Shown: in pieces, positions 4,390 to 26,903 of the stretch | How positions within the stretch are numbered: the stretch's first letter is position 1 | How the letters are laid out: each line of letters begins with the position of its first letter | Assembly (NCBI GenBank): GCA_037441365.1 | Contig: JBBISG010000002.1 | Span: 7,462-71,461 of the forward strand | DNA from: Nitrospirota bacterium | Lineage (GTDB): Bacteria > Nitrospirota > Thermodesulfovibrionia > Thermodesulfovibrionales > UBA9159 | Reading direction: 5' to 3' | DNA length: 64,000 nt | Notes under the pieces: model-generated | What the model was told of the DNA's origin: nothing | Databases searched by the model: none | Seen by the model: only the letters and a program-made list of their open reading frames with translations | Made by a program: the position numbers and the translations under genes

Positions 4390-5144
4390 GAATTAAAGTT
4401 TCAAAGTTCAAGGTTCAAAGTATCTGTACTGCTCTGTTGCTTTTACTTCCTGTCTGTGAGGCCCATGCGATGCACATATCAGAGGGGATACTGCCCTTCG
4501 ACTGGGCAGCGTTGTGGACTGTAATTGCAATCCCATTTGTAGCATACGGACTATATAAGCTAAAGAAGCTCTCTGCCATTGATCTGTCTTTCAAACCCCT
4601 TGTGGGATTGATGGCAGCAGTCGTCTTTATCATCTCCTGCATGCCTATACCTGTGCCGACTGCAGGCACATGCTCACATCCATGCGGAACCGGGATATCA
4701 GGGATACTCGTGGGTCCTGCAATAAGCATATTGATAACTGCTGTTGCCCTTCTAATTCAGGCGCTCTTTCTTGCTCACGGTGGTCTCAGCACATGGGGAG
4801 CGGACATAGTATCAATGGGCGTGATCGGCTCATTTGCAGGATATCTTACCTTCAGGGGATTGAGGGCGTTAAAGGCTAATCTCTGGATTGCAGGCTTCAT
4901 GGCAGGTCTCTTTGCAGACTGGGCAACATATCTGACAACATCTGTTGAACTTGCCTCAGGCATAAAAGGTGATTCGCCGTTCATGCCTCTTTTCTGGAAG
5001 ATACTTATCGCCTTTATACCGACACAGCTTCCATTAGGAATCCTTGAAGGCGCAATGACAGCAGGCATGGTTGTCCTGCTTTATAAGAAAAGACCTGACC
5101 TTCTTGTGAAGATGCGGGTATTAAAGCCAAAGGAGGCGATATGA
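4386..5144 (+). CDS. cbiM: cobalt ECF-type transporter substrate component CbiM
   Basis: Signal peptide ending AHA is followed by MHISEGILP, the conserved mature N-terminus of CbiM. Multiple TM segments. ATGA overlap with the upstream gene. Confidence 0.85.
   Translation: MRIKVSKFKVQSICTALLLLLPVCEAHAMHISEGILPFDWAALWTVIAIPFVAYGLYKLKKLSAIDLSFKPLVGLMAAVVFIISCMPIPVPTAGTCSHPCGTGISGILVGPAISILITAVALLIQALFLAHGGLSTWGADIVSMGVIGSFAGYLTFRGLRALKANLWIAGFMAGLFADWATYLTTSVELASGIKGDSPFMPLFWKILIAFIPTQLPLGILEGAMTAGMVVLLYKKRPDLLVKMRVLKPKEAI
4395..4422. repeat. H-type tandem heptamers (single arm) at the cbiM 5' end
   Basis: AAAGTTT CAAAGTT CAAGGTT CAAAGTA, encoding KVSKFKVQS of the signal-peptide n-region. Confidence 0.6.
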
Positions 5145-5473
5145 AGTTAAAAGTTGAAAGTTTAAAATTTAAAGTTAAAAGTTATGGCGTTATATTTTTG
5201 TTTATTTTTTCATTGTTAGCTGTTCACTGTTCACTTGCAACCGCTGCTGACAAATGGCCTGGTGTTGATGAGTCGGTTGTAGAGAAATACGCAAAAGAGC
5301 ATGGCAGAGAGGCGATGACGCCCTTAATAAACACTGACCAGGGAGACCTCCTTCTCTTTGTCTTCCTGCTTGCAGGCTCTGTTGGCGGTTTTGTAGCAGG
5401 ATACTACTGGAGGGAACTGATAGTCAAAGGACAGCGAGATGATAGTTGCGAAAAACAAAAGATAAAGACATAA
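5141..5473 (+). CDS. cbiN: small membrane component CbiN-like
   Basis: 110 aa with two hydrophobic segments. The loop ...GVDESVVEKYAKEHGREAMTPLINTDQGDLLLFVFLLAGSVGGFVAGYY resembles CbiN. Sits between cbiM and cbiQ. ATGA overlap with cbiM. Confidence 0.65.
   Translation: MKLKVESLKFKVKSYGVIFLFIFSLLAVHCSLATAADKWPGVDESVVEKYAKEHGREAMTPLINTDQGDLLLFVFLLAGSVGGFVAGYYWRELIVKGQRDDSCEKQKIKT
5144..5187. repeat. H-type tandem heptamers (single arm) at the cbiN 5' end
   Basis: GTTAAAA GTTGAAA GTTTAAA ATTTAAA GTTAAAA GTTATGG, encoding KLKVESLKFKVKSYG. Confidence 0.65.
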
Positions 5474-5483
5474 AGGGATAAAG

Positions 5484-6236
5484 GTGGAATTATTTTCAGA
5501 CTACTTTAAAAAGGATCATCTACTTTCAAAGGTTGATGCAAGGCTAAAGCTTATTGTCAGCCTCACCCTTCTGGGAATGATTCTAAGCTATAAGGGATTT
5601 ACCCTTCCTCTGCTTGTGACACTGCTCTGTTTGCTGCTCTGTTTAAGGATGCGGATACCCTTAAGGGTCTTTGCCCTCAGGTTTTCAGAGCCGTTGTTCA
5701 TTATCTCGGTGATCCTTATTTTAAAGGTCTTATTCTCAGGGGAGGACATCCTGTTTTCCATCAGCATATTCGGCGCCAACATTGTTGGACATAAAGACGG
5801 GTTACGGGATGGACTCATGATAGGAAGCAGAATAATAGGCGCAGTATCGGTAGTTGCAGTAATGGGATTTTCCACGCCCTTCACAGAGATTATGGCAGCC
5901 CTTTCATGGATGAGGGTTCCGAAGGGGTTCATAGAGATACTCATGTTTGCCTACCGGTATATCTTTGTCCTTCTTGAAGATGCAATGGTAATTTACAATG
6001 CACAGAAAAATCGTCTCGGTTATTCCAGCATAAAAAAGGGTTTAAACTCTTTCGGAACACTTACCGGCTCTCTTATTATCAAGGCATTTGAGCAAAGCCA
6101 GAATATTACAACTGCGATGATTCAAAGGGGATACGAAGGAAATATGCCAATGCTGAAACATAGACCATTCAGGCCTTCAGAAATTGCCGTTTCAGTCCTA
6201 TTAATAATTGTGCTGGGGTTTGTATGGAAAATATAA
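5484..6236 (+). CDS. cbiQ: ECF transporter transmembrane (T) component CbiQ
   Basis: 250 aa polytopic protein. The C-terminal part ...AYRYIFVLLEDAMVIYNAQKNRLGY... is typical of CbiQ/EcfT. Position between cbiN and cbiO. Confidence 0.8.
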   Translation: MELFSDYFKKDHLLSKVDARLKLIVSLTLLGMILSYKGFTLPLLVTLLCLLLCLRMRIPLRVFALRFSEPLFIISVILILKVLFSGEDILFSISIFGANIVGHKDGLRDGLMIGSRIIGAVSVVAVMGFSTPFTEIMAALSWMRVPKGFIEILMFAYRYIFVLLEDAMVIYNAQKNRLGYSSIKKGLNSFGTLTGSLIIKAFEQSQNITTAMIQRGYEGNMPMLKHRPFRPSEIAVSVLLIIVLGFVWKI

Positions 6237-7168
6237 CAAGAACAGACAACACAGCCCCACCTACCCATCCCTCTCCCTCGAGGGGGGAGGGTAAGGGAAA
6301 GGGTGAAAGTCCGGGGTCTGCTGTCCGGGCTCTGGATTCTGTTAGGTTAGCCGTTAAAATAAATTCATTCAAATATCCTGATGGGACTCGTGCGCTGTCT
6401 GATATCACGTTTGATGTATCGCATGGCGAATTTATCGGTATACTCGGCTCAAATGGTTCTGGAAAGACAACACTGCTTAAAGTAATGGACGGCCTGATGA
6501 AAGATTTTGAAGGCAATGTTTATCTTGACGGAGTTGACATAAAAAAACTTTCTCCAAAGGAGATTTACAAAAAGGTCGGACTCGTCTTCCAAAACCCCGA
6601 TGACCAGCTCTTTGCCTCAACGGTCTTTGAGGATGTTGCATTCGGGCCGAGAAATATGGGATTTTCTGAAAGTGATGTAGTAAGCCGTGTATGGAATGCC
6701 CTGAGCGCTGTTGAAATGGAGGCCCACTCTAAAAAATCCATCCATAACCTGAGTTTTGGACAGAAGAAAAGGGTCTGCATTGCAGGCCTTCTGGCAATGG
6801 GGCATGAAATATTACTGCTTGACGAGCCGACTGCTGGATTAGACCCGATGGGGGAGTATAAGATGATGAACCTCCTCACAAAATTAAACAAAGACAAGGG
6901 GGTAACCACTGTTATGGCAACGCACAGCGTTGACCTTGTGCCCTTATTTCTGGACAGGCTTTATATCTTGAGCAGAGGGGGCATTGTGAGGGGTGGATAC
7001 CCGGAGGATGTCTTTCAGGCGCCAGAGGAAATGGAGAATGTAAAACTCAGGCTTCCCCAGATCGCAGAGCTCGTATGGAGGCTGAAACATGAAGACAATA
7101 TGCCCTTTGAAAGGATTCCGCTCACCGTGGGTGAGGCGAGAAGGGAGATTGTAAGGTTATATGCGTAA
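6224..7168 (+). CDS. cbiO: cobalt ECF transporter ATPase CbiO, with ~40-aa repeat-derived N-terminal extension
   Basis: Walker A GSNGSGKTT, signature LSFGQKKR, Walker B ILLLDEPTAGLD. The 13-nt overlap with cbiQ supports the ATG at 6224. Confidence 0.85.
   Translation: MENITRTDNTAPPTHPSPSRGEGKGKGESPGSAVRALDSVRLAVKINSFKYPDGTRALSDITFDVSHGEFIGILGSNGSGKTTLLKVMDGLMKDFEGNVYLDGVDIKKLSPKEIYKKVGLVFQNPDDQLFASTVFEDVAFGPRNMGFSESDVVSRVWNALSAVEMEAHSKKSIHNLSFGQKKRVCIAGLLAMGHEILLLDEPTAGLDPMGEYKMMNLLTKLNKDKGVTTVMATHSVDLVPLFLDRLYILSRGGIVRGGYPEDVFQAPEEMENVKLRLPQIAELVWRLKHEDNMPFERIPLTVGEARREIVRLYA
6255..6309. repeat. H-element H5 at the cbiO 5' end
   Basis: CACCTAC CCATCCC TCTCCCT C-GA-GGGGGGA GGGTAAG GGAAAGG GTGAAAG. 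Translated as PPTHPSPSRGEGKGKGES. Confidence 0.75.
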
Positions 7169-7679
7169 AGGTTATATACAGGTATATACAGGTAATGGAA
7201 AAGGAAAGACCACTGCAGCGGTAGGGCTTGCTGTAAGGGCAGCAGGTGCTGGTCTCAGGGTATTATTTGCTCAGTTTATAAAAAAGAGAAGGTGCAGCGA
7301 ACACAAGGCCCTTGAGAGATTCAGCGACCTCATTACCGTCAGGCAGTATGGAACGGGTTTTATAAGGGGAAGGAGGCCCTCAAGGGCAGCAAGGTCTTTA
7401 TCAGAGAAAGGACTTGAGGATGCAAGAGAGGAGGTGGTCTCAGGACAGTACGACATCGTTATCCTTGACGAGATAAATGTGGCAATTAATCGCGGGCTTA
7501 TCGATCTTGAAGATGTCATCTCGATGCTGGACAGCAAACCTCCGAATGTTGAGCTTGTTCTTACAGGCAGATATGCCCACAGCAGGATCATAAGAAAGGC
7601 TGACCTTGTTACAGAGATGAAGAAGGTCAAACATTATATGGATAAAGGTGTAAAGGCAAGAATAGGAATTGAAAAGTGA
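7161..7679 (+). CDS. cobO: cob(I)yrinic acid a,c-diamide adenosyltransferase (CobO/CobA/BtuR type)
   Basis: GYIQVYTGNGKGKTTAAVGLAVRAAGAGLRVLFAQFIK and DIVILDEINVAI. Confidence 0.85.
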   Translation: MRKGYIQVYTGNGKGKTTAAVGLAVRAAGAGLRVLFAQFIKKRRCSEHKALERFSDLITVRQYGTGFIRGRRPSRAARSLSEKGLEDAREEVVSGQYDIVILDEINVAINRGLIDLEDVISMLDSKPPNVELVLTGRYAHSRIIRKADLVTEMKKVKHYMDKGVKARIGIEK

Positions 7680-8463
7680 GAGGTCAAAAGTGAGGAAGAT
7701 ATATCTCATCGGTATAGGTCCGGGTGATCCGCAGTATCTGACGCAGCAGGCAGTAGAGATAATGAGAAATGTCGATGTGTTTTTTATCCTTGAAAAGGGG
7801 TCTGAGAAGAACAGAGAGCTTGTGAGGATCAGAAAGGGGATCCTTGAAAGATATCTGCCTGACAGGAATTACAGGATTGTCACGGCGAAGATCCCTGATA
7901 GAAGTAGAGGCGGCAAGGAGTTTGAGATATATAGGGGAAGGGTTGACTCATGGCGTAAACAGAAGGCTGAAATCCTGGCCGGCCTGATCAAGGATGGGAT
8001 GAATGACGGAGAGACTGCTGCCATACTGATCTGGGGTGACCCATCTCTTTATGACGGACATATAGAGATATTAGATTATATACTCAGACAGAAAAAGATA
8101 GATCTTGAATTTGAGGTCATACCGGGTATAACGAGCATACAGGTGCTTACTGCCAGGCATAAGATACCGCTGAATCAGATAGGTGAAGGCATTGTGATAA
8201 CTACATCGAGGGGTCTCAAGGAACTCCTCCCCTCAGAGGTCAGCAATAATGTAGTCTTACTTGATAACTATCTGACCTACAGAAATTTCAGGGAAACAGA
8301 TCTCTATATATACTGGGGGGCCTATCTCGGCAGCCCTGATGAGATCATCCTTTCAGGAAAAGTGAATGATATCCTTGATGACCTTATAAGGACAAGAAAT
8401 GAGGCAAAAAAGAAAAAGGGCTGGATCATGGAGACATACATCCTGAGGAGGCATAGGGAGTGA
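7669..8463 (+). CDS. cobF: precorrin-6A synthase (deacetylating) CobF-like tetrapyrrole methylase. The start may be the GTG at 7690
   Basis: RKIYLIGIGPGDP...VDVFFILEKG...WGDPSLYD...VIPGITS...IYWGAYLGSPDEIILSGKV...GWIMETYILRR matches my recollection of Pseudomonas denitrificans CobF over its full length. Confidence 0.7.
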   Translation: MKSERSKVRKIYLIGIGPGDPQYLTQQAVEIMRNVDVFFILEKGSEKNRELVRIRKGILERYLPDRNYRIVTAKIPDRSRGGKEFEIYRGRVDSWRKQKAEILAGLIKDGMNDGETAAILIWGDPSLYDGHIEILDYILRQKKIDLEFEVIPGITSIQVLTARHKIPLNQIGEGIVITTSRGLKELLPSEVSNNVVLLDNYLTYRNFRETDLYIYWGAYLGSPDEIILSGKVNDILDDLIRTRNEAKKKKGWIMETYILRRHRE

Positions 8464-8476
8464 AGGAGAGGCTGAT

Positions 8477-9388
8477 GTGCTGAGGATAGGGCATCTATCG
8501 ACTTTTTATCATACATCCTTGTTGTTAATGGCCGAGGGAATTGACGATAGACTCGGGACTGTGGTGGAATGGAAACTCTTTGGAACAGGACCTGACATCA
8601 TACGGGCATTTGAACGGGATGAGATAGACATTGCTTATATCGGGCTTCCACCGGTGGTGATCGGGATAGACAGAGGGCTCAGGATTAAATGTATAGCAGG
8701 GGGGCATGTAGAAGGGACTGTAATTGCCGGGGCTGACAGTGTAAGGGGTTTCCCTGATGTGCAGGATCTCGGAGAATTATTACGTCAATTCAGAGGCAAG
8801 AGGATCGGGGTGCCCGGTAGGGGTTCTATCCATGATGTGATAGTGAGAGACTGTATCGATAGCTATAGCCTTGCCGGTGATATAGGGGTAATAAATTTCC
8901 CATGGGCTGATCTCATTGTAGAGGCTGTGAGAAAAGGCGAGGTCTCTATCGCCGCAGGCACGCCAAATCTATCCGTAGCATTAAGGCGGTTTCTTGGCAG
9001 AAGGATTCTATGGCCGCCAGAGAGATTGTGGCCGGACAATCCGAGCTATGGGATAGCGGTGAAGGAGGAGTTTCTCAGGGAATCAGAACTCATAAAAAAA
9101 TTTCTTCTCCTCCATGAAGATGAAACATCTTTTTTGAAAAGAAGGCCCGGGGATGCATCAAAGGTCATAGCGTCAGTCGTGGGGATAGTGGATGAGGACT
9201 TTGTCCTTGAGACCCTCATGGTCTCACCAAAATATTGTGCCTCACTGCCAGAGGGATACATCTCATCAACAATGAAACTTGTGAAGGCCATGAAAAGACT
9301 CGGTTATATAAAACAGGAACTGGCAGCACACGAAATCTTTTATACCGATATAATCAGCGAGATTCACCCCGGCAGAGCTCATTACTGA
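8477..9388 (+). CDS. periplasmic-binding-protein-fold protein (NMT1/THI5 / SsuA-TauA-like); no obvious signal peptide
   Basis: LRIGHLSTFYHTS...GPDIIRAFERDEIDIAYIGLPPVVIG is the type 2 SBP pattern. GTG start. Function not assignable. Confidence 0.45.
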   Translation: MLRIGHLSTFYHTSLLLMAEGIDDRLGTVVEWKLFGTGPDIIRAFERDEIDIAYIGLPPVVIGIDRGLRIKCIAGGHVEGTVIAGADSVRGFPDVQDLGELLRQFRGKRIGVPGRGSIHDVIVRDCIDSYSLAGDIGVINFPWADLIVEAVRKGEVSIAAGTPNLSVALRRFLGRRILWPPERLWPDNPSYGIAVKEEFLRESELIKKFLLLHEDETSFLKRRPGDASKVIASVVGIVDEDFVLETLMVSPKYCASLPEGYISSTMKLVKAMKRLGYIKQELAAHEIFYTDIISEIHPGRAHY

Positions 9389-10484
9389 AGATCTCCTTTA
9401 TTTCTACAGGTGTGAGGGGGATATTGGGGACATCTCTGTTCCCGGGCAGTGCAAGGACATGTATGAAGCGAGGCCCCGGCGACCTTTTATTTATAGCCTC
9501 TATAAGGTCCCTTTTCGTTGATACCTTTACGGTATTAGAAATTCCAAAACCCCTCGCAACCATCTCAAGGTCTGTACATCTCGCTGTGAGTGTAGGCTGG
9601 TCGCCGGTAGAACCATAAGATCCATTATCAATTGCGACGACACTGAGATTTCCCGGCCTGAGATAGGCCATAGTGCCGAGAGTGCCCGGGTTCATGAGAA
9701 GGCTTCCATCTCCATCAATGACAAGGACATCTCTTTTTGTAAAGAGAGAGATGCCAAGACCAATGGGGGTTGCCATACCCATACTTCCGAGCATGTAGAA
9801 GTTTGAAGGCTGGTGTTTTATATAAAAGAGCTCCTTCGACGGAATGCCGAGATTAGAGACCACTATCTTTTGCCCAAGATAGGGTGCCAGTGTCTCTATG
9901 AGCTCGAAACGCGTGTATCTCGGCACAGGTATTTTCGACTGCTTGATCCTGGGTCCCCTGAATCTTCCATCCCTCGGTCTTTTTAGCTGCTTCTTGATAC
10001 CCCATAGTGCTGGACTCATAAGAAAGACGGATATTTTATGACCTTTATAGACATTCTGCAATTCCTCCCTCACGAGTCTTAAATCACTGTCTTCCCTGAG
10101 GATCAGATATTCAATACCGCATGCCTCAAGTATTCCTAAAAGTGCCCGCCCCATGGGTATCTGGGCAGGTATCCTCTCATTGTCCATCCCACGCCAGCTC
10201 ACGAATATACTCAAAGGTAAATCATAGGTCTTCGTCAGCGACATAATGGCATTTAACATGTTTCCAAGGCCAGAGCTCTGGACAAACATCGCCGGCCTCT
10301 TCCCACAGAGGGCAGCACCTGCACAGATGCCCACGCCTTCCTCTTCCCTTGTCAGGGGAATATGTAAGAAATTGGATTCGATGAGTGAGAGGAGAACATT
10401 GATCTTTTCACACGGAAGTGTTGCGATGGGATCTATCGATGATGCCCTGAGGATCTCTATCATCTGTTCCTCACAGGTTTGCAC
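9354..10484 (-). CDS. fused alpha/beta TPP-dependent decarboxylase of the sulfopyruvate / phosphonopyruvate decarboxylase family (ComDE-like)
   Basis: IDPIATLPCEKINVLLSLI...REEEGVGICAGAALCGKRPAMFVQSSGLGN in the N half. TPP motif region GSMGMATPIGLGI...VIDGDGSLLMNPG in the C half. 376 aa. Confidence 0.7.
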   Translation of the reverse strand: MQTCEEQMIEILRASSIDPIATLPCEKINVLLSLIESNFLHIPLTREEEGVGICAGAALCGKRPAMFVQSSGLGNMLNAIMSLTKTYDLPLSIFVSWRGMDNERIPAQIPMGRALLGILEACGIEYLILREDSDLRLVREELQNVYKGHKISVFLMSPALWGIKKQLKRPRDGRFRGPRIKQSKIPVPRYTRFELIETLAPYLGQKIVVSNLGIPSKELFYIKHQPSNFYMLGSMGMATPIGLGISLFTKRDVLVIDGDGSLLMNPGTLGTMAYLRPGNLSVVAIDNGSYGSTGDQPTLTARCTDLEMVARGFGISNTVKVSTKRDLIEAINKRSPGPRFIHVLALPGNRDVPNIPLTPVEIKEIFSNELCRGESR

Positions 10485-11716
10485 AATGCCTCCTCTATCT
10501 CCTTACCTTCTGCCCTCTTTGAGATAAAGATCGGTTTGACAGGATAGGTGTTATACGACCTTCTATATAGATTTTCCCCTCCACCTGTTATGTGAAGAAG
10601 GATGAGGTCATTCTTTTTAAGCCTCCCCTCCTTTTCAGCCTTTATAATGCCTGCCACAGCAGCACCGCTGGCAGGGACGATATCGATCCCTTCTGATTCA
10701 AGGAATAAAGCCATAGCTGAAAAGATTTCCTCGTTTGTCACCCCGTACATCTCTCCATCTGTATTGTCAAGAATATCATATACACCACCCTTTACAGAAT
10801 AGGCAGGGTACCTGCTTGAGAGGACCCTCGTTGATATCCTGTTTATTAATGCAGGCTCAATATCCTCTGGCGATATCCCCCTTGACCTTCTCTGCCATGC
10901 CTTTACCATCGGGGCAAAGGGAAGGTTCTGGACAAGATGAAATCTTGGTAATTTCGACCCAAATCTGCCGTCACGGATAAATCTTTCAGCCATCTCAAAG
11001 ACCCCTATCGCCCCGGCACCACTGCCAACTGCCTGAAAATAATGGTCGGGAAGCCTTTTTATGACAGTGACTGCCTCAAGAAGGACAGCGCCGAGGCCAT
11101 CCCTCTTTGCAGGATTCCTCACCCCTCCCTCAAAGGGCATCCCCGTTGTCTCGGAGACCCTCTTTGCGAGGTCTATGGCATTGGAGTAGTCTCCATCAAC
11201 TACAACAAGGGTTGGAGGATTCCCATTTTTATCTATATACCACATCTCTTTAAGGCAGGCTATTGGAACGACTATTACGACAGGAAGACCTGTGATGCCT
11301 GACAGGTATGCAAATGCCTTTGCCGTATTTCCTGCTGAGGCAACGACAAGACCTTCAATGCCATTTTCTATCGCATTCTGCAAGACCACGGCTACTTCCA
11401 TCTCTTTGAATGTGCAGGTCTTTAACAGGGCCCCCCTTTCAGGCCAGTATCCGCTGAAAGCTATATAGAGGTTATCAAGCTCAAGCCTCCCTGCAAGGCT
11501 ATGAGATTTATACACAACAGTGGCCCCTGCACTGAAGAAACTACCATGCACAGGAAGCCAGTTAAACCTCCAGATACCTTTCTTACAAGGGTCTTCTCTG
11601 AATCTATCCCTGTACTCTGTAACAAGCAAGGATCCCCTGCAGTGCTCGCAGAAGGCGCAATAAGAATCCTCAAGGGCCTTTCCACATCCCCTGCATCTTA
11701 ATATAAAATGGCTCAT
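10460..11716 (-). CDS. threonine-synthase-fold PLP enzyme with N-terminal Cys4 ribbon; cysteate-synthase-like
   Basis: N-terminus CRGCGK...CAFCEHC. PLP-lysine context TCTFKEME. VVASAGNTAKAFA. 418 aa. Translationally coupled to both neighbours. Confidence 0.6.
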   Translation of the reverse strand: MSHFILRCRGCGKALEDSYCAFCEHCRGSLLVTEYRDRFREDPCKKGIWRFNWLPVHGSFFSAGATVVYKSHSLAGRLELDNLYIAFSGYWPERGALLKTCTFKEMEVAVVLQNAIENGIEGLVVASAGNTAKAFAYLSGITGLPVVIVVPIACLKEMWYIDKNGNPPTLVVVDGDYSNAIDLAKRVSETTGMPFEGGVRNPAKRDGLGAVLLEAVTVIKRLPDHYFQAVGSGAGAIGVFEMAERFIRDGRFGSKLPRFHLVQNLPFAPMVKAWQRRSRGISPEDIEPALINRISTRVLSSRYPAYSVKGGVYDILDNTDGEMYGVTNEEIFSAMALFLESEGIDIVPASGAAVAGIIKAEKEGRLKKNDLILLHITGGGENLYRRSYNTYPVKPIFISKRAEGKEIEEALCKPVRNR

Positions 11717-12954
11717 AAGAGGCTCCCTATCAGTTCCATGATATCTACGATCTCTATCTGGTTATGATAGCCTTGCATCGCCTCGTTCACCTTTGAATAA
11801 CAGGCAGGGCAGCTAAGAATGAGTTTTCTGGCGCCCTTTCCGACAGCCTCATCTATTGTCAATCTCCCCATAGCTATAGCATTGTCATGGAAGACCTTCC
11901 GTGCAGCACCACCGGCACCGCAGCATCGTGAGTCAAGCCCGTGACGGTCAAATTCAATGAGTTCAACATTGGGGATGCTTCTCAGGACAAACCTCGGTTC
12001 TTCTATCACTCCAACGCCTCTGCTCAGGTAACATGGGTCGTGATAGATCAATTTTTCATTCAATTCCCCCCTGATCTTTAGCCTCCCACCCTTTATAGCA
12101 TCTGCAACGAACTGGCTTATATGCCTTATCCTGAATGGTAATGGTCTTCCATAAAGGGATGGCCAGTCCCTTGCCATTATATTCACACAGCAGGGACATG
12201 ACGACAACAGCATCTTTACACTCCTTGCCTCATAGGCCCTCACAAGTCTCATTACAAGGCCTTCAAGCATATCCCACTGACCTGTTATGAAAAGTGGAAA
12301 CCCGCAACATACCTCATCTTCGGGTGGAAGCATTGTAAAGGGAATGCCGATGGCATCAAGCACAAGGACATCACCCCTTACCATTGGTTGTGCCTCATAG
12401 CAGCCGGTGCATCCCGCATAATACCCCACCTCTGCCTTTTCATGGACCCTTACCCCTTCAGGAAACCATGGTCTGAATCTATCCTCTGGAGGCTTGTTAT
12501 AGATATTGCCCGTCTCCTTTACAGATTTCGGGAGGTTAGCCTGTGGACCAATCGGTCCAAGCCCTATCTCGACCATTTTTCTCCTGAGCGTGGGCCAGAG
12601 TCTCTGAGTAAATATCCCGACCTCGCATGCCTGGCCACAGGCCCCGCAGGTGGTGCATTCATAGACCGCCCTTGTAAAGTCATCGAGTAGCTTTTTGTCA
12701 ATCTTTTTACCACGTATCTTTGCCTTCAGCCCTTCTGTATTCTCGATAAATTCTCTGTAAAGCCTTATCTTCTCAGGTGGAGAGATATCCCTTCTCCCTG
12801 TAACCTCCTGAACAGGGCACCATTTTAGACATTCGCTGCACCTCGTGCAAGCGTCAAGCTCTATAAGCTGGCGCCGTGTTAAACCATCAACTAAGGATGC
12901 GCCCTTACCCATGGACAAGCCCCTCAAGATAGGCCCTTCTCTTTGATGCCTCAA
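11713..12954 (-). CDS. HdrD/DsrK/GlpC-family iron-sulfur protein with two CCG domains. The likely true start is the ATG at 12912
   Basis: Two ferredoxin motifs, CTRCSECLKWCP and CTTCGACGQAC. CCG motifs EVCCGFP and SRCCGAGG. The 12912 ATG overlaps the upstream stop by 8 nt. Confidence 0.75.
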   Translation of the reverse strand: MRHQREGPILRGLSMGKGASLVDGLTRRQLIELDACTRCSECLKWCPVQEVTGRRDISPPEKIRLYREFIENTEGLKAKIRGKKIDKKLLDDFTRAVYECTTCGACGQACEVGIFTQRLWPTLRRKMVEIGLGPIGPQANLPKSVKETGNIYNKPPEDRFRPWFPEGVRVHEKAEVGYYAGCTGCYEAQPMVRGDVLVLDAIGIPFTMLPPEDEVCCGFPLFITGQWDMLEGLVMRLVRAYEARSVKMLLSSCPCCVNIMARDWPSLYGRPLPFRIRHISQFVADAIKGGRLKIRGELNEKLIYHDPCYLSRGVGVIEEPRFVLRSIPNVELIEFDRHGLDSRCCGAGGAARKVFHDNAIAMGRLTIDEAVGKGARKLILSCPACYSKVNEAMQGYHNQIEIVDIMELIGSLL

Positions 12955-13711
12955 GGGTGGTTATCTGGGCTGCAAACATATGGAACTGCTTGGAAAACGG
13001 AATAAAGGCAATAAAGGTAAATGCAGAGAGGGCATGGAATATCCAGAAGACCATGTAGAGAAGAGGAAGTGGAATGTCTCCACCGAGGGATTTAAATATA
13101 GAGGAAAACACTGCACCAACGGGCGACCAGTCCATGAGTGGAGGATTAAACCTTGCCAGACGTATCCCCTCGATGCAGAAACCACTGAAAATAACAATAA
13201 ACATCAGGATAAGGACAGCTGCATCATCCCAGCCTGAAACCACTGAATGCCTCAAAAACACAGATCTTCTCAGGATATAGAAGGAAAGGCTTATCAGGGC
13301 AAGTCCGCCTGCTATGTCAAGGACGAAGGAATAATAAAGATAAAACTTACCCTTCAGGATATCCAGCCCGAGGTCATAATCAACAGCAACTAACACCGTC
13401 CCGATAAAAAGGATTACAAACCCCCAGTAAATGAATATAAGCATCATCCCTCTGAGTTTGCTCTTCTGCATAACCCTTCGAGCCATGAGACAGTCCGCTG
13501 AAAAGATATAAAGGAGGCTTGCCATTATTAATTTAGATACCGATTTTCCAGATAAGCCGTCGGAAGGGTCAGCCCTTCCCCTGAGCCAGATAGAGACCTT
13601 AAACCACGAGCCTATAAAGAAAATAGCCACGGCCATCGAAGCTGCTGCATAGAAGACATATCTCAGCGATAATGGGATATCTCCAAAAACCTCTCTTGAT
13701 GCCTCAACCAT
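12905..13711 (-). CDS. polytopic membrane protein, NarI/DsrM/HdrE-like (putative b-type cytochrome partner of the CCG protein)
   Basis: 268 aa with about 5-6 hydrophobic helices and His residues within helices. Coupled to the HdrD-like gene. The family call rests mainly on context. Confidence 0.5.
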   Translation of the reverse strand: MVEASREVFGDIPLSLRYVFYAAASMAVAIFFIGSWFKVSIWLRGRADPSDGLSGKSVSKLIMASLLYIFSADCLMARRVMQKSKLRGMMLIFIYWGFVILFIGTVLVAVDYDLGLDILKGKFYLYYSFVLDIAGGLALISLSFYILRRSVFLRHSVVSGWDDAAVLILMFIVIFSGFCIEGIRLARFNPPLMDWSPVGAVFSSIFKSLGGDIPLPLLYMVFWIFHALSAFTFIAFIPFSKQFHMFAAQITTLEASKRRAYLEGLVHG

Positions 13712-13733: not shown

Positions 13734-14681
13734 TTAGAGGGTGCCCTCAAAAAACACGAAAGGACTCTTCATCAGCTCGCTCCTCTGGGCAGATTTAACT
13801 GTGTTTTCAAGGAGCATTGCTATAGTAACAGGGCCAACGCCGCCAGGCACCGGGGTGATAAAAGATGCCTTTTTTGCAACCTGCTCGAAATCCACATCGC
13901 CGACAATCGTCCCATCACTGAGGACATTGATCCCGATGTCCACAACCACAGCTCCTTCCTTAACCATATCTCCTCTTATCAACCCTCTAACCCCTGTTGC
14001 CGAACATATAATATCTGCCTGTCGGGTATGATGCCCCAGGTCATGGGTCTCTCTATGACAGACTGTCACAGTTGCCTCCTTGGCAAGAAACATCAAAGAC
14101 AGCGGCTTGCCAACGGCAAGGCTCTTGCCGATGACAACTACATGTCTTCCCCTGATCTCCACATTGTAATATTCGAGGAGTCTTATAACACCAAAGGGGG
14201 TGCACGGCAAAAAGCTTGATAAGGCAGGCATGTATTGGTTCATTACCACATGGGGCTTATGTTGAAACATCTGGAATGTGGACTCCTCAGCAGCAAGCCT
14301 CCCGACAGAGATAGAACCGAGACCATCAACATCCTTTTCAGGCACTATTGAATTCACGATCCTTCGTGAATTCATTTTGCGCGGCAGAGGGAAGAGCATC
14401 AAAAGACCATTAATCCTTTCATCATGGTTGATGGAATACACAATGTTCAATATCTCATTAATCGATGTTGAGGCAGGCAATCTATACTCATATGTGCTTA
14501 TGCCGACCTTCCTGCATGCCTTTAAGGTGGCGAGGAAATACTGTTCAGATGCAGGGTTATCTCCGACCATCAGAAGGGCCAGACCCACATCGATACCGAA
14601 CTCGTTCAGACTCTTAACGCTCTCCCTTACCCTTGCCTTTATCTCATCGGCGAGTTTTTTACCATCCATTATGTTTGACAT
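13734..14681 (-). CDS. folD: bifunctional methylenetetrahydrofolate dehydrogenase / methenyl-THF cyclohydrolase
   Basis: DGKKLADEIKARV...PVPGGVGPVTIAMLLENTV, with the Rossmann motif VVVIGKSLAVGKPL. Confidence 0.85.
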   Translation of the reverse strand: MSNIMDGKKLADEIKARVRESVKSLNEFGIDVGLALLMVGDNPASEQYFLATLKACRKVGISTYEYRLPASTSINEILNIVYSINHDERINGLLMLFPLPRKMNSRRIVNSIVPEKDVDGLGSISVGRLAAEESTFQMFQHKPHVVMNQYMPALSSFLPCTPFGVIRLLEYYNVEIRGRHVVVIGKSLAVGKPLSLMFLAKEATVTVCHRETHDLGHHTRQADIICSATGVRGLIRGDMVKEGAVVVDIGINVLSDGTIVGDVDFEQVAKKASFITPVPGGVGPVTIAMLLENTVKSAQRSELMKSPFVFFEGTL

Positions 14682-15037: not shown

Positions 15038-17011
15038 TTATCCTTTTACCCCGACACGAGCCGCAGACTGCTCAAGGAGGCCTTTCAGGTTCGGGAAGGG
15101 GTCTTTCATGTGTGGTATATGCATGGCCTGCATGAACTCCTTCTGGAAATCGGGCTCTACAGCTATTTCGACGAACTCCACCCACCGCGCCCTCTCCTCT
15201 GCCTCGACTCTCTTACCCCTGTTCAGAAGGGCCATCCTCGCGCCATCTCCTGCTGCATTGCCGACTGCATAGACATTGTTAATATCACAGTCAGGGAACA
15301 TGCCGAGGGTCAGCGCAGATTCCTTATCAATATAACTCCCAAACGCACCTGCGAGTATCACCTTGTCAACCCTTTCGATACCCATCTTTTTCATCATCAG
15401 CTTTGCCCCTGCATAGAGCGCCCCCTTTGCGAGCTGAAGTGCCCTCACATCTGCCTGGTTGATAGTGATGTCCGTGCCTATGGATGTCTCATCGGCCCAT
15501 GCGAGCACATACTCGGGTCTTCCATCAGAGTCGCGTCTTACCCTCGGTGTATCCAGTCCGGAATTAAATTTGCCTGTCTTATCTATTATCCCTGCCTTGA
15601 ACATCTCAGCAACCGCATCAATGATTCCAGAGCCGCAGATGCCCTTTGCATCTATCTTTTCGAGATGGGTATGCCAGTCTGCCTTTCCTATAACCTTATA
15701 TTCAGGCTCTTTTGTTTCAGGGTCTATCCTTACCTTCTCGATTGCACCTGGCGACGCCCTCATACCAAACTTTATCTGGGCCCCTTCGAAGGCCGGACCT
15801 GTTGCACAGGATGTTGAACAGACCCTCTCTCTGCTGCCGAGCAGTAGCTCGCCGTTTGTCCCGATATCGATAATCAAAACCTTTTCATTGAGGTTATAGG
15901 GCTCTTCTGCTATGAGCACACCGACATTGTCAGCGCCTACAAAACCAGCCTCTATCGGAAGGACATATATGTACGATGACGGGTTTATCTTTATCCCTAT
16001 GTCGCGGGCCTTTACATTCAATCCATGCTGCAGGGCAGGTATAAAAGGCGACCTCCCGATATATTCAGGATCGAACCCGAGGAATATGTGGTGCATTGCC
16101 GTATTAAAAACAACTGTCATGTCAATAATGGCATCACCCCCGTCTCTGCCATTCACACGGAGGTCTGTCGTTATTTTATTAATGATCTCATTGATCCCGT
16201 CAATAATCGCCTTCTGCATCTTTTCAAGGCCGTCCTTATTCATCATGGCATAGGTAATCCTCGACATAACATCCTCGCCAAACGGCACCTGTGGATTCAT
16301 CATCGATTCAGTATTGATGACCTTTCCTGTGTTCAGGTCGCAGAGATAGCCGACAACAGTTGTTGTCCCAACGTCAACGGCGAGGCCGTAGGATGATTCA
16401 ATAAACCCTGGTTCAACCTTTATAATCTCTTTATCCATCCAGATAGAGACCGTAATGTTCCAGTTGCCCTTCCTGATGATACCCTGAAGGGTTCTGACCA
16501 CAGGGTAATCGATACTCAGGCCCTTAAGGGCATACTCGCTCTGGAGGGCATCTATGACCCTCTCGAAGTCGCCTGTTGTGAGGTCATGGAGGGTCGGCTG
16601 TCTTAGTTCGAGGAAGTATTTTTTTACTGTAGGGTCGAGGCTTATGCTCAGCTCCTTCGCAGCCTTTCTCACAATCTGTTTACCTGCCCTCGATTTCTCA
16701 GGAACGAAGACCTTTACATCACCTCTTATCACAGCAGCACATGCGAGCCTCATATCAGGGCCTTCATCAGACTTGATAAATTTCCTCTCTACCTCAGTCA
16801 TCGAGGTAAGATGAGACATCCTCGAATCCATCGCATCCTTCTCAAAATACCCCTCTTCAATTCTCACCTTGCATTTCCCGCATGTGCCCTTTCCACCACA
16901 TATAGACTCGATATCAACACCGAGCTGCCTTGCTGCATCAAGCAGGGTTATCTCACCCTGAACCTCTCCCCTCCTGCCAGAGGGCTGAAAAATCACTCTA
17001 TGCTTTCGCAT
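15038..17011 (-). CDS. corrinoid reductive activation protein (RamA/RACo type: N-terminal 2Fe-2S ferredoxin plus ASKHA ATPase domain)
   Basis: CGGKGTCGKCKV plant-type ferredoxin motif, then AVDVGTTTVVGYL and IDIGTNGEL ASKHA phosphate motifs. 657 aa. Confidence 0.8.
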   Translation of the reverse strand: MRKHRVIFQPSGRRGEVQGEITLLDAARQLGVDIESICGGKGTCGKCKVRIEEGYFEKDAMDSRMSHLTSMTEVERKFIKSDEGPDMRLACAAVIRGDVKVFVPEKSRAGKQIVRKAAKELSISLDPTVKKYFLELRQPTLHDLTTGDFERVIDALQSEYALKGLSIDYPVVRTLQGIIRKGNWNITVSIWMDKEIIKVEPGFIESSYGLAVDVGTTTVVGYLCDLNTGKVINTESMMNPQVPFGEDVMSRITYAMMNKDGLEKMQKAIIDGINEIINKITTDLRVNGRDGGDAIIDMTVVFNTAMHHIFLGFDPEYIGRSPFIPALQHGLNVKARDIGIKINPSSYIYVLPIEAGFVGADNVGVLIAEEPYNLNEKVLIIDIGTNGELLLGSRERVCSTSCATGPAFEGAQIKFGMRASPGAIEKVRIDPETKEPEYKVIGKADWHTHLEKIDAKGICGSGIIDAVAEMFKAGIIDKTGKFNSGLDTPRVRRDSDGRPEYVLAWADETSIGTDITINQADVRALQLAKGALYAGAKLMMKKMGIERVDKVILAGAFGSYIDKESALTLGMFPDCDINNVYAVGNAAGDGARMALLNRGKRVEAEERARWVEFVEIAVEPDFQKEFMQAMHIPHMKDPFPNLKGLLEQSAARVGVKG

Positions 17012-17025: not shown

Positions 17026-17697
17026 TTAAGCAGTTAAGCTAAGAACCCCGGACATGGAGCCTTTTCTACCATAAGGACAGATATTTATACAGACACCGCA
17101 GTTGGGTTTTCTGTTCACTGCTCTGGTGTTCTTCTTGTACGAACTGCAATGGTCGGTCCTGACAAGTTCTACATAAGGCGCATCCCTCGACCAGTCCTTA
17201 CCTGTGATTGCACTGGACGGGCAGTACTCTACGCATAGTTTACACTCCCCGCAAAGACTGAATTTTATCGGACTGCCGGTGCTGAGCGGCGCGTCTGTCA
17301 GGACAGTTGCGAGCGAAAGTCTCGGACCATACTCAGGGCTTATAAGAAGACCATTCCTGCCGATCCATCCAAGCCCTGCAGAGGTTGCTGCTATCTTATG
17401 TGTGAATAACGGGTAAAGCCTCGATATAAAGGTTCCACGTATCCTATCCGAATCTGGAGGTATACAGAGATACCTGTGGCCATCTCTTCTCAGGCACCTC
17501 GCAGCCTTCTTCTGCAGGGCAAGGAGCAGCTTTACTGTATCGTCATTAAGGTTTTTATTTACACCTATCGAGATAGCCTTTCTGAGGTGTGCTATCTCGG
17601 GACCCAGAACCTCACCCACATCGGCAAAACCTACAACGGTTGCCCCTGTGGTCATAAGTTCCTTCATGATAGCCTCATTTAGCAGCCCTTTTAGCAT
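17026..17697 (-). CDS. 4Fe-4S dicluster protein, epoxyqueuosine-reductase (QueG)-like fold. The start may be 17667
   Basis: CGECKLCVEYCP and CGVCINICP motifs; GLGWIGRNGLLISPEYGPRLSLATV. Confidence 0.55.
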   Translation of the reverse strand: MLKGLLNEAIMKELMTTGATVVGFADVGEVLGPEIAHLRKAISIGVNKNLNDDTVKLLLALQKKAARCLRRDGHRYLCIPPDSDRIRGTFISRLYPLFTHKIAATSAGLGWIGRNGLLISPEYGPRLSLATVLTDAPLSTGSPIKFSLCGECKLCVEYCPSSAITGKDWSRDAPYVELVRTDHCSSYKKNTRAVNRKPNCGVCINICPYGRKGSMSGVLSLTA

Positions 17698-20545: not shown

Positions 20546-20995
20546 CTAATACACCCCATGGTCGAATCTGGGTTGGGGCAGGTACTCCCAGCTTTCACCC
20601 TTTCTATACTTGGCAGCAATATCCATGCATTTAAGGGCATACTCGAAGGCGTATGGAATACCAGGGCCGCCTGGCACAAAACCAGCCAGTATCATGCCAA
20701 CAGCCGCAGCCTCGAATATCTCCTGGTCAGTTGCGCCGGCATTTATAGCAGGGACGACATGTATGATACAGCGGGGTGAACAGTAGGCGACTCCGCCCGC
20801 CATGAACATCAACTCCTTGATCTTCTTAGAGAGCGCCCCATCTCCGAAGATGGTCGCATAGAAATCTGCAAAGGTCTTTCCGGGGTCAGGTGTAACAGTG
20901 TTTATTATCTGGAACATCCTCGGCACGAACCCCATGGTCTTTTTCATGTACTCGTTGACTTCCTCTGCTGTCATGGTCTTTCTTTCTTCGGCCAT
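20546..20995 (-). CDS. carboxymuconolactone decarboxylase (AhpD-like) family protein
   Basis: 149 aa, all-helical, with KELMFMAGGVAYCSPRCIIH. Family-level call only. Confidence 0.5.
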   Translation of the reverse strand: MAEERKTMTAEEVNEYMKKTMGFVPRMFQIINTVTPDPGKTFADFYATIFGDGALSKKIKELMFMAGGVAYCSPRCIIHVVPAINAGATDQEIFEAAAVGMILAGFVPGGPGIPYAFEYALKCMDIAAKYRKGESWEYLPQPRFDHGVY

Positions 20996-23152: not shown

Positions 23153-24022
23153 CTAAAGATAATCTGCGATTGCATCAAGTACCTCACTAACAGCATCTGA
23201 TTTATTCAGGGTATAAAAATGGAGATACCTTACACCGTTGCTTAGCAGGTCTTCGCATTGCTCTATAGCATACTCAACTCCCAGCTTCTTCATTTCATAT
23301 GGTTTATCAAGGGCAGGCTCCATCCTCTCCTTGATAACTTCAGGGATAGTTGTCTTACATAGAGTAGCGAACTCCAATATTTTCCCGTAATCAGTAATAG
23401 GCATAATGCCTGGTATTATAGGGATGGTTATCCCCTTTTTCTCTGCCCTGTCCATAAAATCGTAGTAATATCTGTTATCAAAAAACATCTGGGTAATACC
23501 AAAATCTGCACCTGCATCTATCTTTTGTTTCGTATACTCAATGTCCTTTTCACGGCCCCGAGATTCCTGGTGTCCCTCAGGATAGACAGCTACTGCTATC
23601 GAAAAATAATCGTATCTTCTAACAAACTCAACAAGGTCCTTTGCATATTTAAACTCACCTTTAGTTGGGTCAAAGTTTGGTACATTTTTGGGAGGGTCAC
23701 CCCTCAGGGCAAGGATGTTATCGATGCCATTGGTCATGTAATCCCTGAGGAGAGAATCCATACTTATCTTTGTTGCTCCGATGCAGGTAAGATGAGACAT
23801 CACGGTGAGGTCTGTCTCCTGTTTTATCCAGAGAAGGGTATTCCTCGTTCTATCCTGTGTGCTTCCTCCTGCTCCATAAGTAACAGATACATAGGTTGGA
23901 TCATAATGCCTCAGGGCATTAATAACTTTCATAAAACCTTCTTTTCCCTCCTCAGACCTGGGAGGGAAAAATTCGAAGGAGACCCCCTTTGCCCTTTTCT
24001 TCAATATCTCTCTAATCCGCAT
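23153..24022 (-). CDS. metF: methylenetetrahydrofolate reductase
   Basis: SFEFFPPRSEEG...VSVTYGAGGST...HLTCIG...ILALRGDPP...ITQMFFD. 289 aa. Confidence 0.85.
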   Translation of the reverse strand: MRIREILKKRAKGVSFEFFPPRSEEGKEGFMKVINALRHYDPTYVSVTYGAGGSTQDRTRNTLLWIKQETDLTVMSHLTCIGATKISMDSLLRDYMTNGIDNILALRGDPPKNVPNFDPTKGEFKYAKDLVEFVRRYDYFSIAVAVYPEGHQESRGREKDIEYTKQKIDAGADFGITQMFFDNRYYYDFMDRAEKKGITIPIIPGIMPITDYGKILEFATLCKTTIPEVIKERMEPALDKPYEMKKLGVEYAIEQCEDLLSNGVRYLHFYTLNKSDAVSEVLDAIADYL

Positions 24023-26495: not shown

Positions 26496-26903
26496 ATGCA
26501 GGAGACTGTGAGCGGCGGTTCTGCTGAGAATAAAAACGAGGACCTCTTTGTCGTTCTCTGTGCATCAGGTTTTGATAGGGTTGCAAATGCCCGTTCAGCC
26601 CTTATGTTCGCCACACTCGCTGCATCAGCCAACTATAGAACGATTCTTTTCTGTGTGCAGAACGCAGTAGATGTCATGGTCAAGGGCGCTATAGAGAAAA
26701 ATGAAACCCCTGTGCCTGGTGCCCCTACACTTGCACAGAGGCTGCGTGAGGCGATGGAGATGGGCGTTGAGATCCAGTGCTGTTCCCAGACGATTGACAA
26801 CAAGAGGCTTACAGAGAATGACCTCCTCACAGGCATAAAGGTAGCAGGGGCTATGAACCTCATAGCCCTTGCTACAAGGGCAAAGGGAACGCTTTCTTTT
26901 TAG
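26496..26903 (+). CDS. DsrE/DsrF-like family protein
   Basis: 135 aa. LFVVLCASGFDRVANARSALMFATLAAS...EIQCCSQTI...GAMNLIAL resembles the DsrE-like fold. Confidence 0.55.
   Translation: MQETVSGGSAENKNEDLFVVLCASGFDRVANARSALMFATLAASANYRTILFCVQNAVDVMVKGAIEKNETPVPGAPTLAQRLREAMEMGVEIQCCSQTIDNKRLTENDLLTGIKVAGAMNLIALATRAKGTLSF

Follow-up and report, generated by a model that had tools for sequence, protein, structure and literature searches.

Coenzyme M (CoM, 2-mercaptoethanesulfonate) is regarded as a cofactor of methanogens, alkane oxidisers and a few alkene-oxidising aerobes, and it serves as a biomarker for methanogen biomass. The gene cluster discussed here is found in a stretch of DNA of 64,000 nucleotides (nt) on contig JBBISG010000002.1, in the following called the window, from a metagenome-assembled genome of Thermodesulfovibrionia (Nitrospirota), a sulfate-reducing clade. 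The NCBI contig measures 86 kb, and the corresponding Logan run is SRR11582170. In this cluster genes for a predicted cysteate synthase (CS) and a predicted fused sulfopyruvate decarboxylase (ComDE) follow a pair of genes coding for an HdrD-like iron-sulfur (FeS) protein and a NarI-like membrane protein, and a gene for a SsuA/TauA-like protein converges on them. The conserved set suggests an unreported CoM-like thiol outside the methanogens.

The closest described system is the type II (phosphoserine) CoM pathway of class II methanogens, where MA3297 codes for cysteate synthase, MA3298 for ComDE and MA3299 for MMP16/ComF (PMC12068725). The window shares with it the co-directional, adjacent genes for CS and fused ComDE, recognised by the same equivalog models, and neither system encodes a dedicated aminotransferase. 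Physical or regulatory linkage to heterodisulfide reductase (Hdr) and a SsuA-type protein also exists in methanogens; CoM starvation of Methanosarcina acetivorans co-induces ssuA/ssuC, cs, comDE and hdrABC (PMC12068725). The differences are that the host is a bacterium with no known methyl-CoM reductase (MCR), that the third gene is SsuA/TauA-like and not MMP16, that the HdrD-like/NarI-like pair is translationally coupled upstream, and that the end product is here a prediction from the genes. The xcb pathway of Xanthobacter autotrophicus Py2 (PMC9457059) is comparable in that the window cluster, too, would be a bacterial source of CoM. However, the xcb pathway starts from phosphoenolpyruvate (PEP) via an aspartase/fumarase-family step, serves alkene metabolism in aerobes and has no homologs here. 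Recent papers on CoM treat the CS-ComDE route as archaeal and the unrelated xcb pathway as the bacterial route (PMC9457059; PMC12068725).

For the HdrD-like/NarI-like pair three described systems are relevant. HdrDE, the methanophenazine:CoM-S-S-CoB oxidoreductase of Methanosarcina, likewise combines a membrane subunit of the NarI superfamily with a cytoplasmic protein holding two cubane clusters and two CCG domains, and the window protein is 37% identical to Methanosarcinales-related HdrD. Unlike HdrDE the window pair has Cys241 in place of Gly and is without the His of helix 2, its quinone would be menaquinone, and no coenzyme B (CoB) is known in the clade. EtfD (Rv0338c; 9ojn), which passes electrons from electron transfer flavoprotein (ETF) to menaquinone, has the same domain order in one fused chain with a five-helix membrane part, two cubane clusters and two CCG domains (PMC13083937); a link to menaquinone would be common to both. 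The first motif of EtfD is CTG with a linear 3Fe-4S cluster (a 4-Cys site), whereas the window protein keeps both CC pairs; it has Cys where EtfD has His583, and no ETF genes were found in the window. DsrMK also consists of a NarI-like membrane subunit and a CCG-domain protein in a sulfur-metabolising host, but the window protein fails the DsrK model (83 bits, cut-off 400), and in a related locus (L086) such a pair coexists with a separate dsrMK.

Upstream of the cluster the window resembles the corrinoid-dependent systems MtaA/MtbA/MtsA, type 1 mlp (PMC10418091) and Mto/MtgA (PMC8630106). In common are two UroD-family methyltransferases with His-Cys-Cys, a corrinoid protein, a bacterial-type RACo and an MtrH-like pterin methyltransferase. 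The type 1 mlp clusters are without a folate methyltransferase, while the window has one, and the Mto systems, unlike the window, use O-demethylases. No such corrinoid system has been reported joined to CS-ComDE or to an Hdr-like pair.

The annotation as such is not new, since NCBI names Nitrospirota proteins 'cysteate synthase'. In the full-text literature no paper was found that links cysteate synthase, comDE or CoM to Nitrospirota, Thermodesulfovibrio, Candidatus (Ca.) Sulfobium or Hydrothermarchaeota; the genes go unmentioned in the paper on the Ca. Sulfobium genome and in a study of aquifer Nitrospirota, and the papers searched report no MCR from this clade. Carr et al. described MtrH, methyltransferases and hdr in Hydrothermarchaeota without MCR and did not settle what becomes of methyl-CoM (PMC6775978).

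Organization of the gene cluster

The genes of the module, with coordinates of the window, are as follows (those of the four minus-strand genes are from the list of open reading frames, ORFs; aa, amino acids).

12905..13711, minus strand: membrane subunit of the NarI superfamily, 268 aa
11713..12912, minus strand: HdrD-like FeS protein, 399 aa from the ATG at 12912, CCG domain twice and Fer4_8
10460..11716, minus strand: cysteate synthase (predicted), 418 aa, PALP / TIGR03844
9354..10484, minus strand: fused ComDE (predicted), 376 aa from the GTG at 10484 or 369 aa from the ATG at 10463
8477..9388, plus strand: SsuA/TauA-like protein of the NMT1_2 family, predicted cytoplasmic, 303 aa, convergent with ComDE

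A first-pass annotation of this DNA had described the four minus-strand genes between 9354 and 13711 as overlapping one another and following folD by 22 nt, and both coordinates and junctions were confirmed. Read from the sequence, the folD stop is 22 nt from the ATG of the membrane gene, which has GGAGG 6 nt upstream. The junction between the membrane gene and the HdrD-like gene, ATGGGTAA, is an 8-nt overlap if the ATG at 12912 is taken as start; the ORF list also offers a TTG start (11713-12954). The HdrD-like gene overlaps the cysteate synthase gene by 4 nt (ATGA). The cysteate synthase and ComDE genes overlap by 25 nt with the GTG at 10484 as start, which has GAGGAGG 5 nt upstream, and by 4 nt (ATGA) with the ATG at 10463, the start in the public gene call. 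The gene at 8477-9388 and ComDE overlap by 35 nt with their 3' ends.

The four-gene unit as first described holds for the gene order, but the transcription unit is probably much longer, because from the MtrH-like gene (20408) to ComDE (9354) eleven genes follow each other with no gap above 51 nt. The conserved fifth gene at 8477-9388 and the breadth of the conservation had been overlooked.

Cysteate synthase and sulfopyruvate decarboxylase

The third gene codes for an enzyme dependent on pyridoxal phosphate (PLP), which the first-pass annotation took for a relative of cysteate synthase with threonine synthase (ThrC) as the competing assignment. In hidden Markov model (HMM) comparisons it obtains 457.1 bits with TIGR03844, the cysteate synthase equivalog (cut-off 324.9), against 98.2 bits with the best of all ThrC models. 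Among solved structures it matches the cysteate synthase 9k3c with 286 bits and ThrC with 68 bits, and the model of the cysteate sulfo-lyase CuyA gives 27 bits. The protein has an N-terminal Cys-rich ribbon (CRGCG...CAFCEHC) and carries its PLP lysine in a TFKE motif. Relatives in Nitrospirae, Ca. Sulfobium, Hydrothermarchaeales and methanogens are labelled 'cysteate synthase' by NCBI and JGI.

The fourth gene codes for a thiamine pyrophosphate (TPP) enzyme with the domains TPP_enzyme_N and TPP_enzyme_C and the motif GDGS...DNG. It passes TIGR03845 (186.3, cut-off 147.95) and TIGR03846 (223.9, cut-off 221.5), the latter by its beta part with a margin of 2.4 bits, and it fails TIGR03297 for phosphonopyruvate decarboxylase (205.3, cut-off 312.5). 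The closest solved structures carry the label putative phosphonopyruvate decarboxylase subunits. No match to PEP_mutase was found among all sizeable ORFs of the window. As both HMM comparisons favour CS and ComDE, the suspicion that one enzyme might belong to ThrC or the other to the phosphonopyruvate decarboxylases did not hold. By these scores the PLP enzyme is a cysteate synthase and not ThrC, and the TPP enzyme is a fused sulfopyruvate decarboxylase and not a phosphonopyruvate decarboxylase.

The biochemistry of CS and ComDE is reportedly due to Graham et al. in 2009. Given a general aminotransferase the two enzymes yield sulfoacetaldehyde, which is established biochemistry (PMC12068725), and we consider it very probable that the window enzymes together make this compound. 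A class I/II aminotransferase at 690-1979 was considered as the missing cysteate aminotransferase and set aside; since it lies behind CbiB within a cobalamin cluster it is more simply CobD.

The HdrD-like protein and its membrane partner

Pfam finds two CCG domains and a 4Fe-4S dicluster domain (Fer4_8) in the HdrD-like protein. The best curated model in NCBIfam is TfrB, the HdrD-like part of thiol:fumarate reductase, with 174 bits, and the DsrK equivalog gives 83.3 bits with a cut-off of 400; the designation HdrD-like is thus borne out, the protein being nearer to HdrD/TfrB than to DsrK by model scores. JGI names its close relatives hdrD, 'heterodisulfide reductase subunit D'. Two cubane 4Fe-4S motifs (Cys 22, 25, 28, 32, 86, 89, 92 and 96) and two complete CCG motifs (Cys 168, 202, 203, 239, 242, 294, 330, 331, 368 and 371) are present. 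All 8 cubane and 10 CCG cysteines align with HdrD of Ca. Argoarchaeum and are kept in 63/63 orthologs. An additional cysteine, Cys241 in a CPCC motif, is invariant in the clade, and is Gly in canonical HdrD and in local paralogs.

An exhaustive search of cluster representatives at 50% identity gave a tight clade followed by a drop. Beyond the clade the relatives are a metagenome contig with cytochrome-oxidase genes (48%), marine archaea (43%) and Desulfobaccales (39%); the identity to bona fide HdrD of Ca. Argoarchaeum/Ethanoperedens is 37%. In five loci (L016, L017, L034, L056 and L058, at about 6.7-8.0 kb) an additional HdrD paralog of canonical type, with 28-31% identity and Gly for Cys241, is found upstream of the membrane gene, so that one membrane subunit is flanked by two HdrD-like proteins.

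The membrane protein gives 20 bits with Nitrate_red_gam of Pfam (cut-off 22.9) and E=1.5e-4 with the membrane part of QmoC. It has about 5 transmembrane helices, keeps a PFSKQFHMF motif and has an invariant Cys74; across 74 homologs the only conserved histidines are H226 and H244, both of the last helix. PF02665 is present in the majority of close homologs, to which JGI gives the name narI. As no His of helix 2 is conserved and the relatives are labelled narI, we class the subunit as NarI-like and not as a recognisable HdrE; of the earlier description, NarI/DsrM/HdrE-like, the first part stands and HdrE does not. The pair is accordingly described as built like HdrDE, yet it is not classed as HdrDE. 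In 51 related loci the membrane protein is replaced by a very divergent NarI-like homolog with four histidines (hhalign 97%, 14% identity). One HdrD-like ortholog is thus seen with two types of membrane protein, the two-His type of the window (about 10 loci) or the four-His type (51 loci; family f6, L005-L080). A Cys-rich protein of 80-83 aa is encoded between the HdrD-like and membrane genes in L083-L085, L087, L092 and L073 (in L073 at 8911-9162); it has no family match and is absent from the window arrangement.

Locus L086 has dsrC-dsrM-dsrK-tusA-dsrEFH and then a separate NarI-like/HdrD-like pair, 41% and 37% identical to the window proteins, while its DsrK is just 24.5% identical to the HdrD-like protein of the window. 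Because L086 has a dsrMK in addition to an orthologous pair, the window pair is placed as a paralog of DsrMK and not as DsrMK itself; the objection that it might simply be dsrMK is answered by this and by the score of 83 bits with the DsrK model.

Conservation of the gene order

The cysteate synthase was searched against one genome per species, which gave 80 loci with 58-75% identity. Nearly all are labelled Nitrospirota/Thermodesulfovibrionia, Ca. Sulfobium included, and the single 'Betaproteobacteria' bin is probably misbinned. An HdrD-like ortholog is directly upstream of CS in 71/75 species-level loci with room for it, and ComDE is downstream of CS in 72/72; nothing conserved was found in these loci as the next gene on the same strand after ComDE. 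In other lineages the module is rearranged at 37-56% identity. As the order recurs in this way across species and is rearranged elsewhere, it must be more than chance. Most loci have an array ahead of the module, consisting of MtaA-like, CMD/AhpD-like, MtrH-like, MtaA-like and corrinoid proteins and then FeS/activase genes, namely an RDH/QueG-like FeS protein, RACo, DUF6951 and sometimes FolD.

In L086 the pair is convergent with ComDE-CS (56% and 47% identity) with a SsuA-like NMT1_2 gene (49%) next, and the five-gene set therefore recurs without any methyltransferases. In L091/92, a 1.9-Mb contig from Juan de Fuca, these five genes all point one way, and CS, ComDE and the SsuA-like gene overlap by 4 nt at each junction. 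CS-ComDE-NMT1_2 is also found in L093 (a Hydrothermarchaeales archaeon), L094, L096 (Ca. Pyrohabitans) and L097/98, often with a PNPOx-like gene and sometimes with an amidohydrolase or DsrE gene beside it. The pair is kept with CS-ComDE without methyltransferases in L044, L086 and L092, and L067, L104 and L105 have no Hdr-like pair and keep RACo-DUF6951-CS-ComDE. CS-ComDE is in this sense the hub of three independent associations, with the Hdr-like pair, with the methyltransferase cluster and with the SsuA-like gene.

In Methanocella conradii HZ254 (L095, 1994-8384) hdrC-hdrB-hdrA, the last fused to MvhD, divergently adjoins CS-ComDE, and no MMP16 is present within 6 kb. These hdrCBA genes and the co-induction in M. 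acetivorans form a methanogen precedent for the grouping.

Two further contexts were observed. In L044 (118-6577) genes for a methyltransferase, a ketoacyl synthase, an AMP-ligase, two radical SAM proteins (one B12-binding) and an acyl carrier protein stand before the module in place of the corrinoid methyltransferases; this lipid-like cluster hints at a sulfonolipid-type use of the sulfonate. In Desulfobaccales (L087/L088, 5288-11092) the HdrD-like, 83-aa and NarI-like genes lie between a TauE/SafE exporter and molybdopterin oxidoreductases, with Na/sulfate symporter and sulfotransferase genes nearby, which places the subfamily once more in a sulfur or sulfonate setting.

The SsuA-like protein and DsrE proteins

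The protein encoded at 8477-9388 obtains 47 bits with NMT1_2 of Pfam, 67 bits over the full length of TIGR01728 (SsuA_fam), which is under the cut-off, and a weak match to TauA in the PDB. It has no signal peptide, and the alignment of orthologs shows nine invariant His/Cys. A structure predicted from a 5-row alignment had a mean pLDDT of 54.6. The protein is a candidate for a sulfonate-binding or catalytic partner. Its gene adjoins CS-ComDE in 6/6 other non-methanogen contexts (L086, L091/92, L093, L094, L096 and L097/98), and in the close clade the link to ComDE is frequent, not obligatory. Usually after the SsuA-like gene in L004, L013, L014, L023 and many metagenome loci is a gene for a protein of about 198 aa (f11, e.g. 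L104 4044-4583) with a ribbon-helix-helix-like C-terminus; it has no family match, is absent from the window and may be a regulator.

A DsrE gene is located between CS and ComDE in L073 and after the operon in L093. The window has one DsrE-family gene some distance away:

26496..26903, plus strand: DsrE-family protein (Pfam DsrE)

Its identity is 40% with the DsrE that follows NMT1_2 in L093 and 37.5% with the one in L073. Because these homologs sit inside CS-ComDE operons, the window DsrE is a possible sulfur carrier for the module.

Methyltransferases and the one-carbon island

The genes upstream of the module are the following.

13734..14681, minus strand: FolD, THF_DHG_CYH and C-terminal domain, FolD models up to 331 bits
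14682-15032, minus strand: DUF6951 protein, syntenic in most loci
15038-17011, minus strand: RACo-type corrinoid reductive activase, syntenic in most loci
17026-17697, minus strand: RDH/QueG-like 2x[4Fe-4S] protein, syntenic in most loci
17675-18370, minus strand: corrinoid protein, TIGR02370 212.8 bits
18373-19410, minus strand: MtaA1, S-methyltransferase of the MtaA/CmuA family (predicted), TIGR01463 249.6/235.4, NF004889 272/244
19461-20408, minus strand: methyl-corrinoid:pterin methyltransferase of the MtrH family, NF002142 334/287
20546-20995, minus strand: CMD/AhpD-like protein
21125-22153, minus strand: MtaA2, second methyltransferase of the MtaA family, under family cut-offs (181/235)
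23153..24022, minus strand: MetF, methylene-tetrahydrofolate (THF) reductase, head of the gene array, TIGR00676 343.7/293.7

MtaA1 matches M. mazei MtaA (4ay7) with 164 bits. The cut-off of the methanogen equivalog MtaA_Meth is not reached (244/400). The zinc ligands His-Cys-Cys are kept in 48/48 orthologs of MtaA1 and 19/19 of MtaA2. In the UroD superfamily this triad marks S- (or Se-) methyltransferases, and O-demethylases drop one or both cysteines (Kountz and Balskus, PMC10418091). MtaA1 and MtaA2 are read as putative thiol methyltransferases because both keep this zinc site, and a reading as Mto-like O-demethylases was dropped for the same reason. The remark that MtaA-family genes lie next to the unit was right, and its link to thiol methyl transfer has gained from the zinc sites.

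The array is surrounded by genes of related function. At 25923-31198 OsmC-like and DsrE-like genes stand before formate dehydrogenase (FDH) alpha (TIGR01591, 871 bits), which is followed by a ShyB/AsrA-like FeS protein and an FAD/NAD protein; this region together with MetF and FolD constitutes an island for one-carbon (C1) oxidation. The OsmC-like and CMD proteins match '(seleno)protein' family models. At 85-8463, abutting the module, are CbiB, the aminotransferase (probably CobD), CbiA, CbiX/CbiC, CobO, CobF and the cobalt transporter CbiMNQO, which fits the corrinoid demand of the methyltransferase system. Boxes of sigma-54 type (TGGTAT-N5-TTTGCA) are found on the minus strand at 24065-24080, upstream of metF, and at 22662-22677, upstream of a small receiver-like ORF. 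A perfect 14-bp inverted repeat is at 24079-24109, and a divergent sigma-54 activator with a GAF domain at 24150-25658 on the plus strand. It should be noted that the two boxes are just leads on regulation, since the pattern occurs at chance level in the window (29 matches, 28.7 expected).

A possible coenzyme M pathway

The reading which we tentatively favour, with the arguments for and against it nearly balanced, is that the module and the gene at 8477-9388 make CoM or a very close thiol-sulfonate, which the pair would handle and the methyltransferases would use. Three properties of CoM fit the genes: the sulfonate fits the SsuA/TauA-like fold, the methylatable thiol fits the His-Cys-Cys zinc sites of the MtaA homologs, and the thiol/disulfide chemistry fits the ten CCG cysteines complete in all 63 orthologs. 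The reading is also backed by the DsrE genes within the operon of L073 and after that of L093, by the methanogen precedent and by the tight packing of the eleven genes.

The model starts with O-phosphoserine and sulfite, of which a sulfate reducer has plenty; cysteate synthase would combine the two to cysteate. Sulfopyruvate would arise from this by a general housekeeping aminotransferase, as it does in Methanosarcina, and the fused ComDE would decarboxylate sulfopyruvate to sulfoacetaldehyde. The steps of cysteate synthase and ComDE are backed by the family models. The aldehyde would then become the thiol by reductive sulfur transfer without ComF/MMP16. The place of MMP16 after ComDE in methanogens is taken here by the SsuA-like gene. 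The sulfonate would be bound or converted by the SsuA-like protein, and a DsrE-type carrier may in some genomes bring the sulfur. The HdrD-like/NarI-like pair would wire an Hdr-type site to the menaquinone pool, where it could draw on menaquinol to supply two electrons and free the thiol from a mixed disulfide, or keep the thiol pool reduced; elsewhere a PNPOx-like reductase might supply the electrons in place of the pair. In Thermodesulfovibrionia the thiol would be the substrate of the two upstream zinc S-methyltransferases of the MtaA family, and these together with the corrinoid protein, RACo and the MtrH-like enzyme might shuttle methyl groups between the thioether and THF.

A wider version, which we regard as doubtful, is that both sulfate-reducing Nitrospirota and non-methanogenic archaea (such as Hydrothermarchaeales) make CoM with a ComF-independent last step, and that in Thermodesulfovibrionia methyl-CoM is an intermediate of corrinoid-dependent methyl metabolism without methyl-CoM reductase. 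The ComF-independent step would combine a SsuA-like enzyme of the cytoplasm with a DsrE-type carrier of sulfur and an Hdr-like reductase linked to menaquinone. On this version CoM would have a third biological context, and there would be a new CoM synthase.

A number of observations speak against a CoM-like thiol. Among solved structures the HdrD-like protein is closest to EtfD (9ojn, 78 bits), and the extra Cys241 aligns with His583 of EtfD. This His583 caps the second cluster of EtfD and makes it non-catalytic, and the first CCG motif is degenerate (PMC13083937); EtfD does no disulfide chemistry. With an ETF:menaquinone oxidoreductase as the closest structure, the membrane thiol/disulfide reductase of the first-pass annotation is a putative function; the complete CCG motifs speak for it and the invariant Cys241 against it. 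A helix-2 His is not conserved in any of the 74 homologs of the membrane protein. A heterodisulfide cycle as in methanogens would have no visible source, because there is no evidence of CoB or MCR. ComF/MMP16 (COG1900) was found neither in the window nor within 10 kb in the 80 genome loci and the other contexts. When metagenomes were searched from the SsuA-like protein, ComDE was within 3 kb in 20/34 informative loci. In L096 CS-ComDE and the SsuA-like gene are beside heme-copper oxidase genes, where a role as methyl carrier is unlikely, and marine archaea and an organism with cytochrome oxidase have co-orthologous pairs without CS-ComDE in the vicinity.

Alternative explanations

The alternative which survives best, although we find it unlikely, is that CS and ComDE feed a product that is not a thiol (isethionate, taurine or sulfoacetate), used as osmolyte, lipid head-group precursor or sulfite sink, and that the pair is an unrelated EtfD-like wire from a C1 donor, for instance MetF or a ferredoxin-like protein, to menaquinone. 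Oxidation of methyl-THF requires an acceptor with a potential above that of NAD+. This need would be served by such a wire, FolD is encoded directly before the pair, and the island also contains MetF and FDH; EtfD as best PDB match and the cysteine at its His583 position point the same way. The lipid-like cluster of ketoacyl synthase, acyl carrier protein and radical SAM genes before the L044 module and the occurrence of CS-ComDE-SsuA-like in organisms with cytochrome oxidase are consistent with a non-thiol product. However, the pair stays with CS-ComDE far from C1 genes (L044, L086 and L092), both CCG motifs are complete unlike those of EtfD, no ETF genes are in the window, and the neighbouring methyltransferases have zinc sites of thiol type. 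Reduction or transamination of sulfoacetaldehyde requires, moreover, neither an FeS/quinone module nor a DsrE carrier.

Breakdown of sulfonates is improbable. Imported cysteate, sulfolactate or sulfopyruvate would here be decarboxylated by ComDE, and desulfonation of the resulting sulfoacetaldehyde would give sulfite as electron acceptor, and the pair would feed electrons from the quinone pool. Work by Denger et al. in 2009 is said to have shown ComDE homologs in sulfolactate degradation in Roseovarius nubinhibens, so bacterial ComDE homologs reportedly can serve such a route; sulfite respiration is a trait of the host clade, the window encodes a SsuA-like binding protein, and in Desulfobaccales a relative of the pair is beside TauE, Na/sulfate symporter and sulfotransferase genes. 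This is at variance with the biosynthetic type of the PLP enzyme (457 bits with TIGR03844 vs 27 bits with CuyA) and with the SsuA-like protein being without signal peptide. Neither Xsc, nor a glycyl radical enzyme of IslAB type, nor a sulfonate ABC permease/ATPase was found in the window or the loci.

That the pair is DsrMK or a spare copy of it for trafficking by DsrC/TusA/DsrE, with an incidental adjacency to CS-ComDE, is largely refuted and very improbable. The NarI-like and CCG-protein architecture is the same, dsr genes are known from the host clade (PMC11033732), the window contains a DsrE-like gene and the L086 pair is 3 kb from dsr genes; but the DsrK score is far under its cut-off, the DsrK of L086 itself is distant from the window protein, and CS is adjacent in 71/75 species. 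A threonine synthase with a phosphonopyruvate decarboxylase for phosphonate synthesis, to which the labels of the closest TPP structures and the margin of 2.4 bits with TIGR03846 might point, was tested and is hardly credible with ThrC at no more than 98 bits against 457 for cysteate synthase, TIGR03297 failing (205/312.5) where the ComD and ComE models pass, and no PEP mutase in the window.

Other features of the window

At 50000-54600, where glycosyltransferase genes follow one another, the GC content falls from about 47% to 37%; this may be a horizontally acquired polysaccharide island. Scans of the window for tRNA and with Rfam found no RNA genes.

Significance

If the tentatively favoured reading, a CoM-like thiol made and used by these genes, is true, CoM or a new relative of it would be extended to bacterial sulfur respirers of a clade widespread in the subsurface and in wetlands. 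An alternative to the last step of CoM synthesis, a step debated even in methanogens, would have a candidate in these genes. One branch of the many orphan HdrD-like/NarI-like pairs would obtain a concrete function, and the finding would bear on the MtrH, methyltransferase and Hdr genes in lineages without MCR such as Hydrothermarchaeota and Archaeoglobi.

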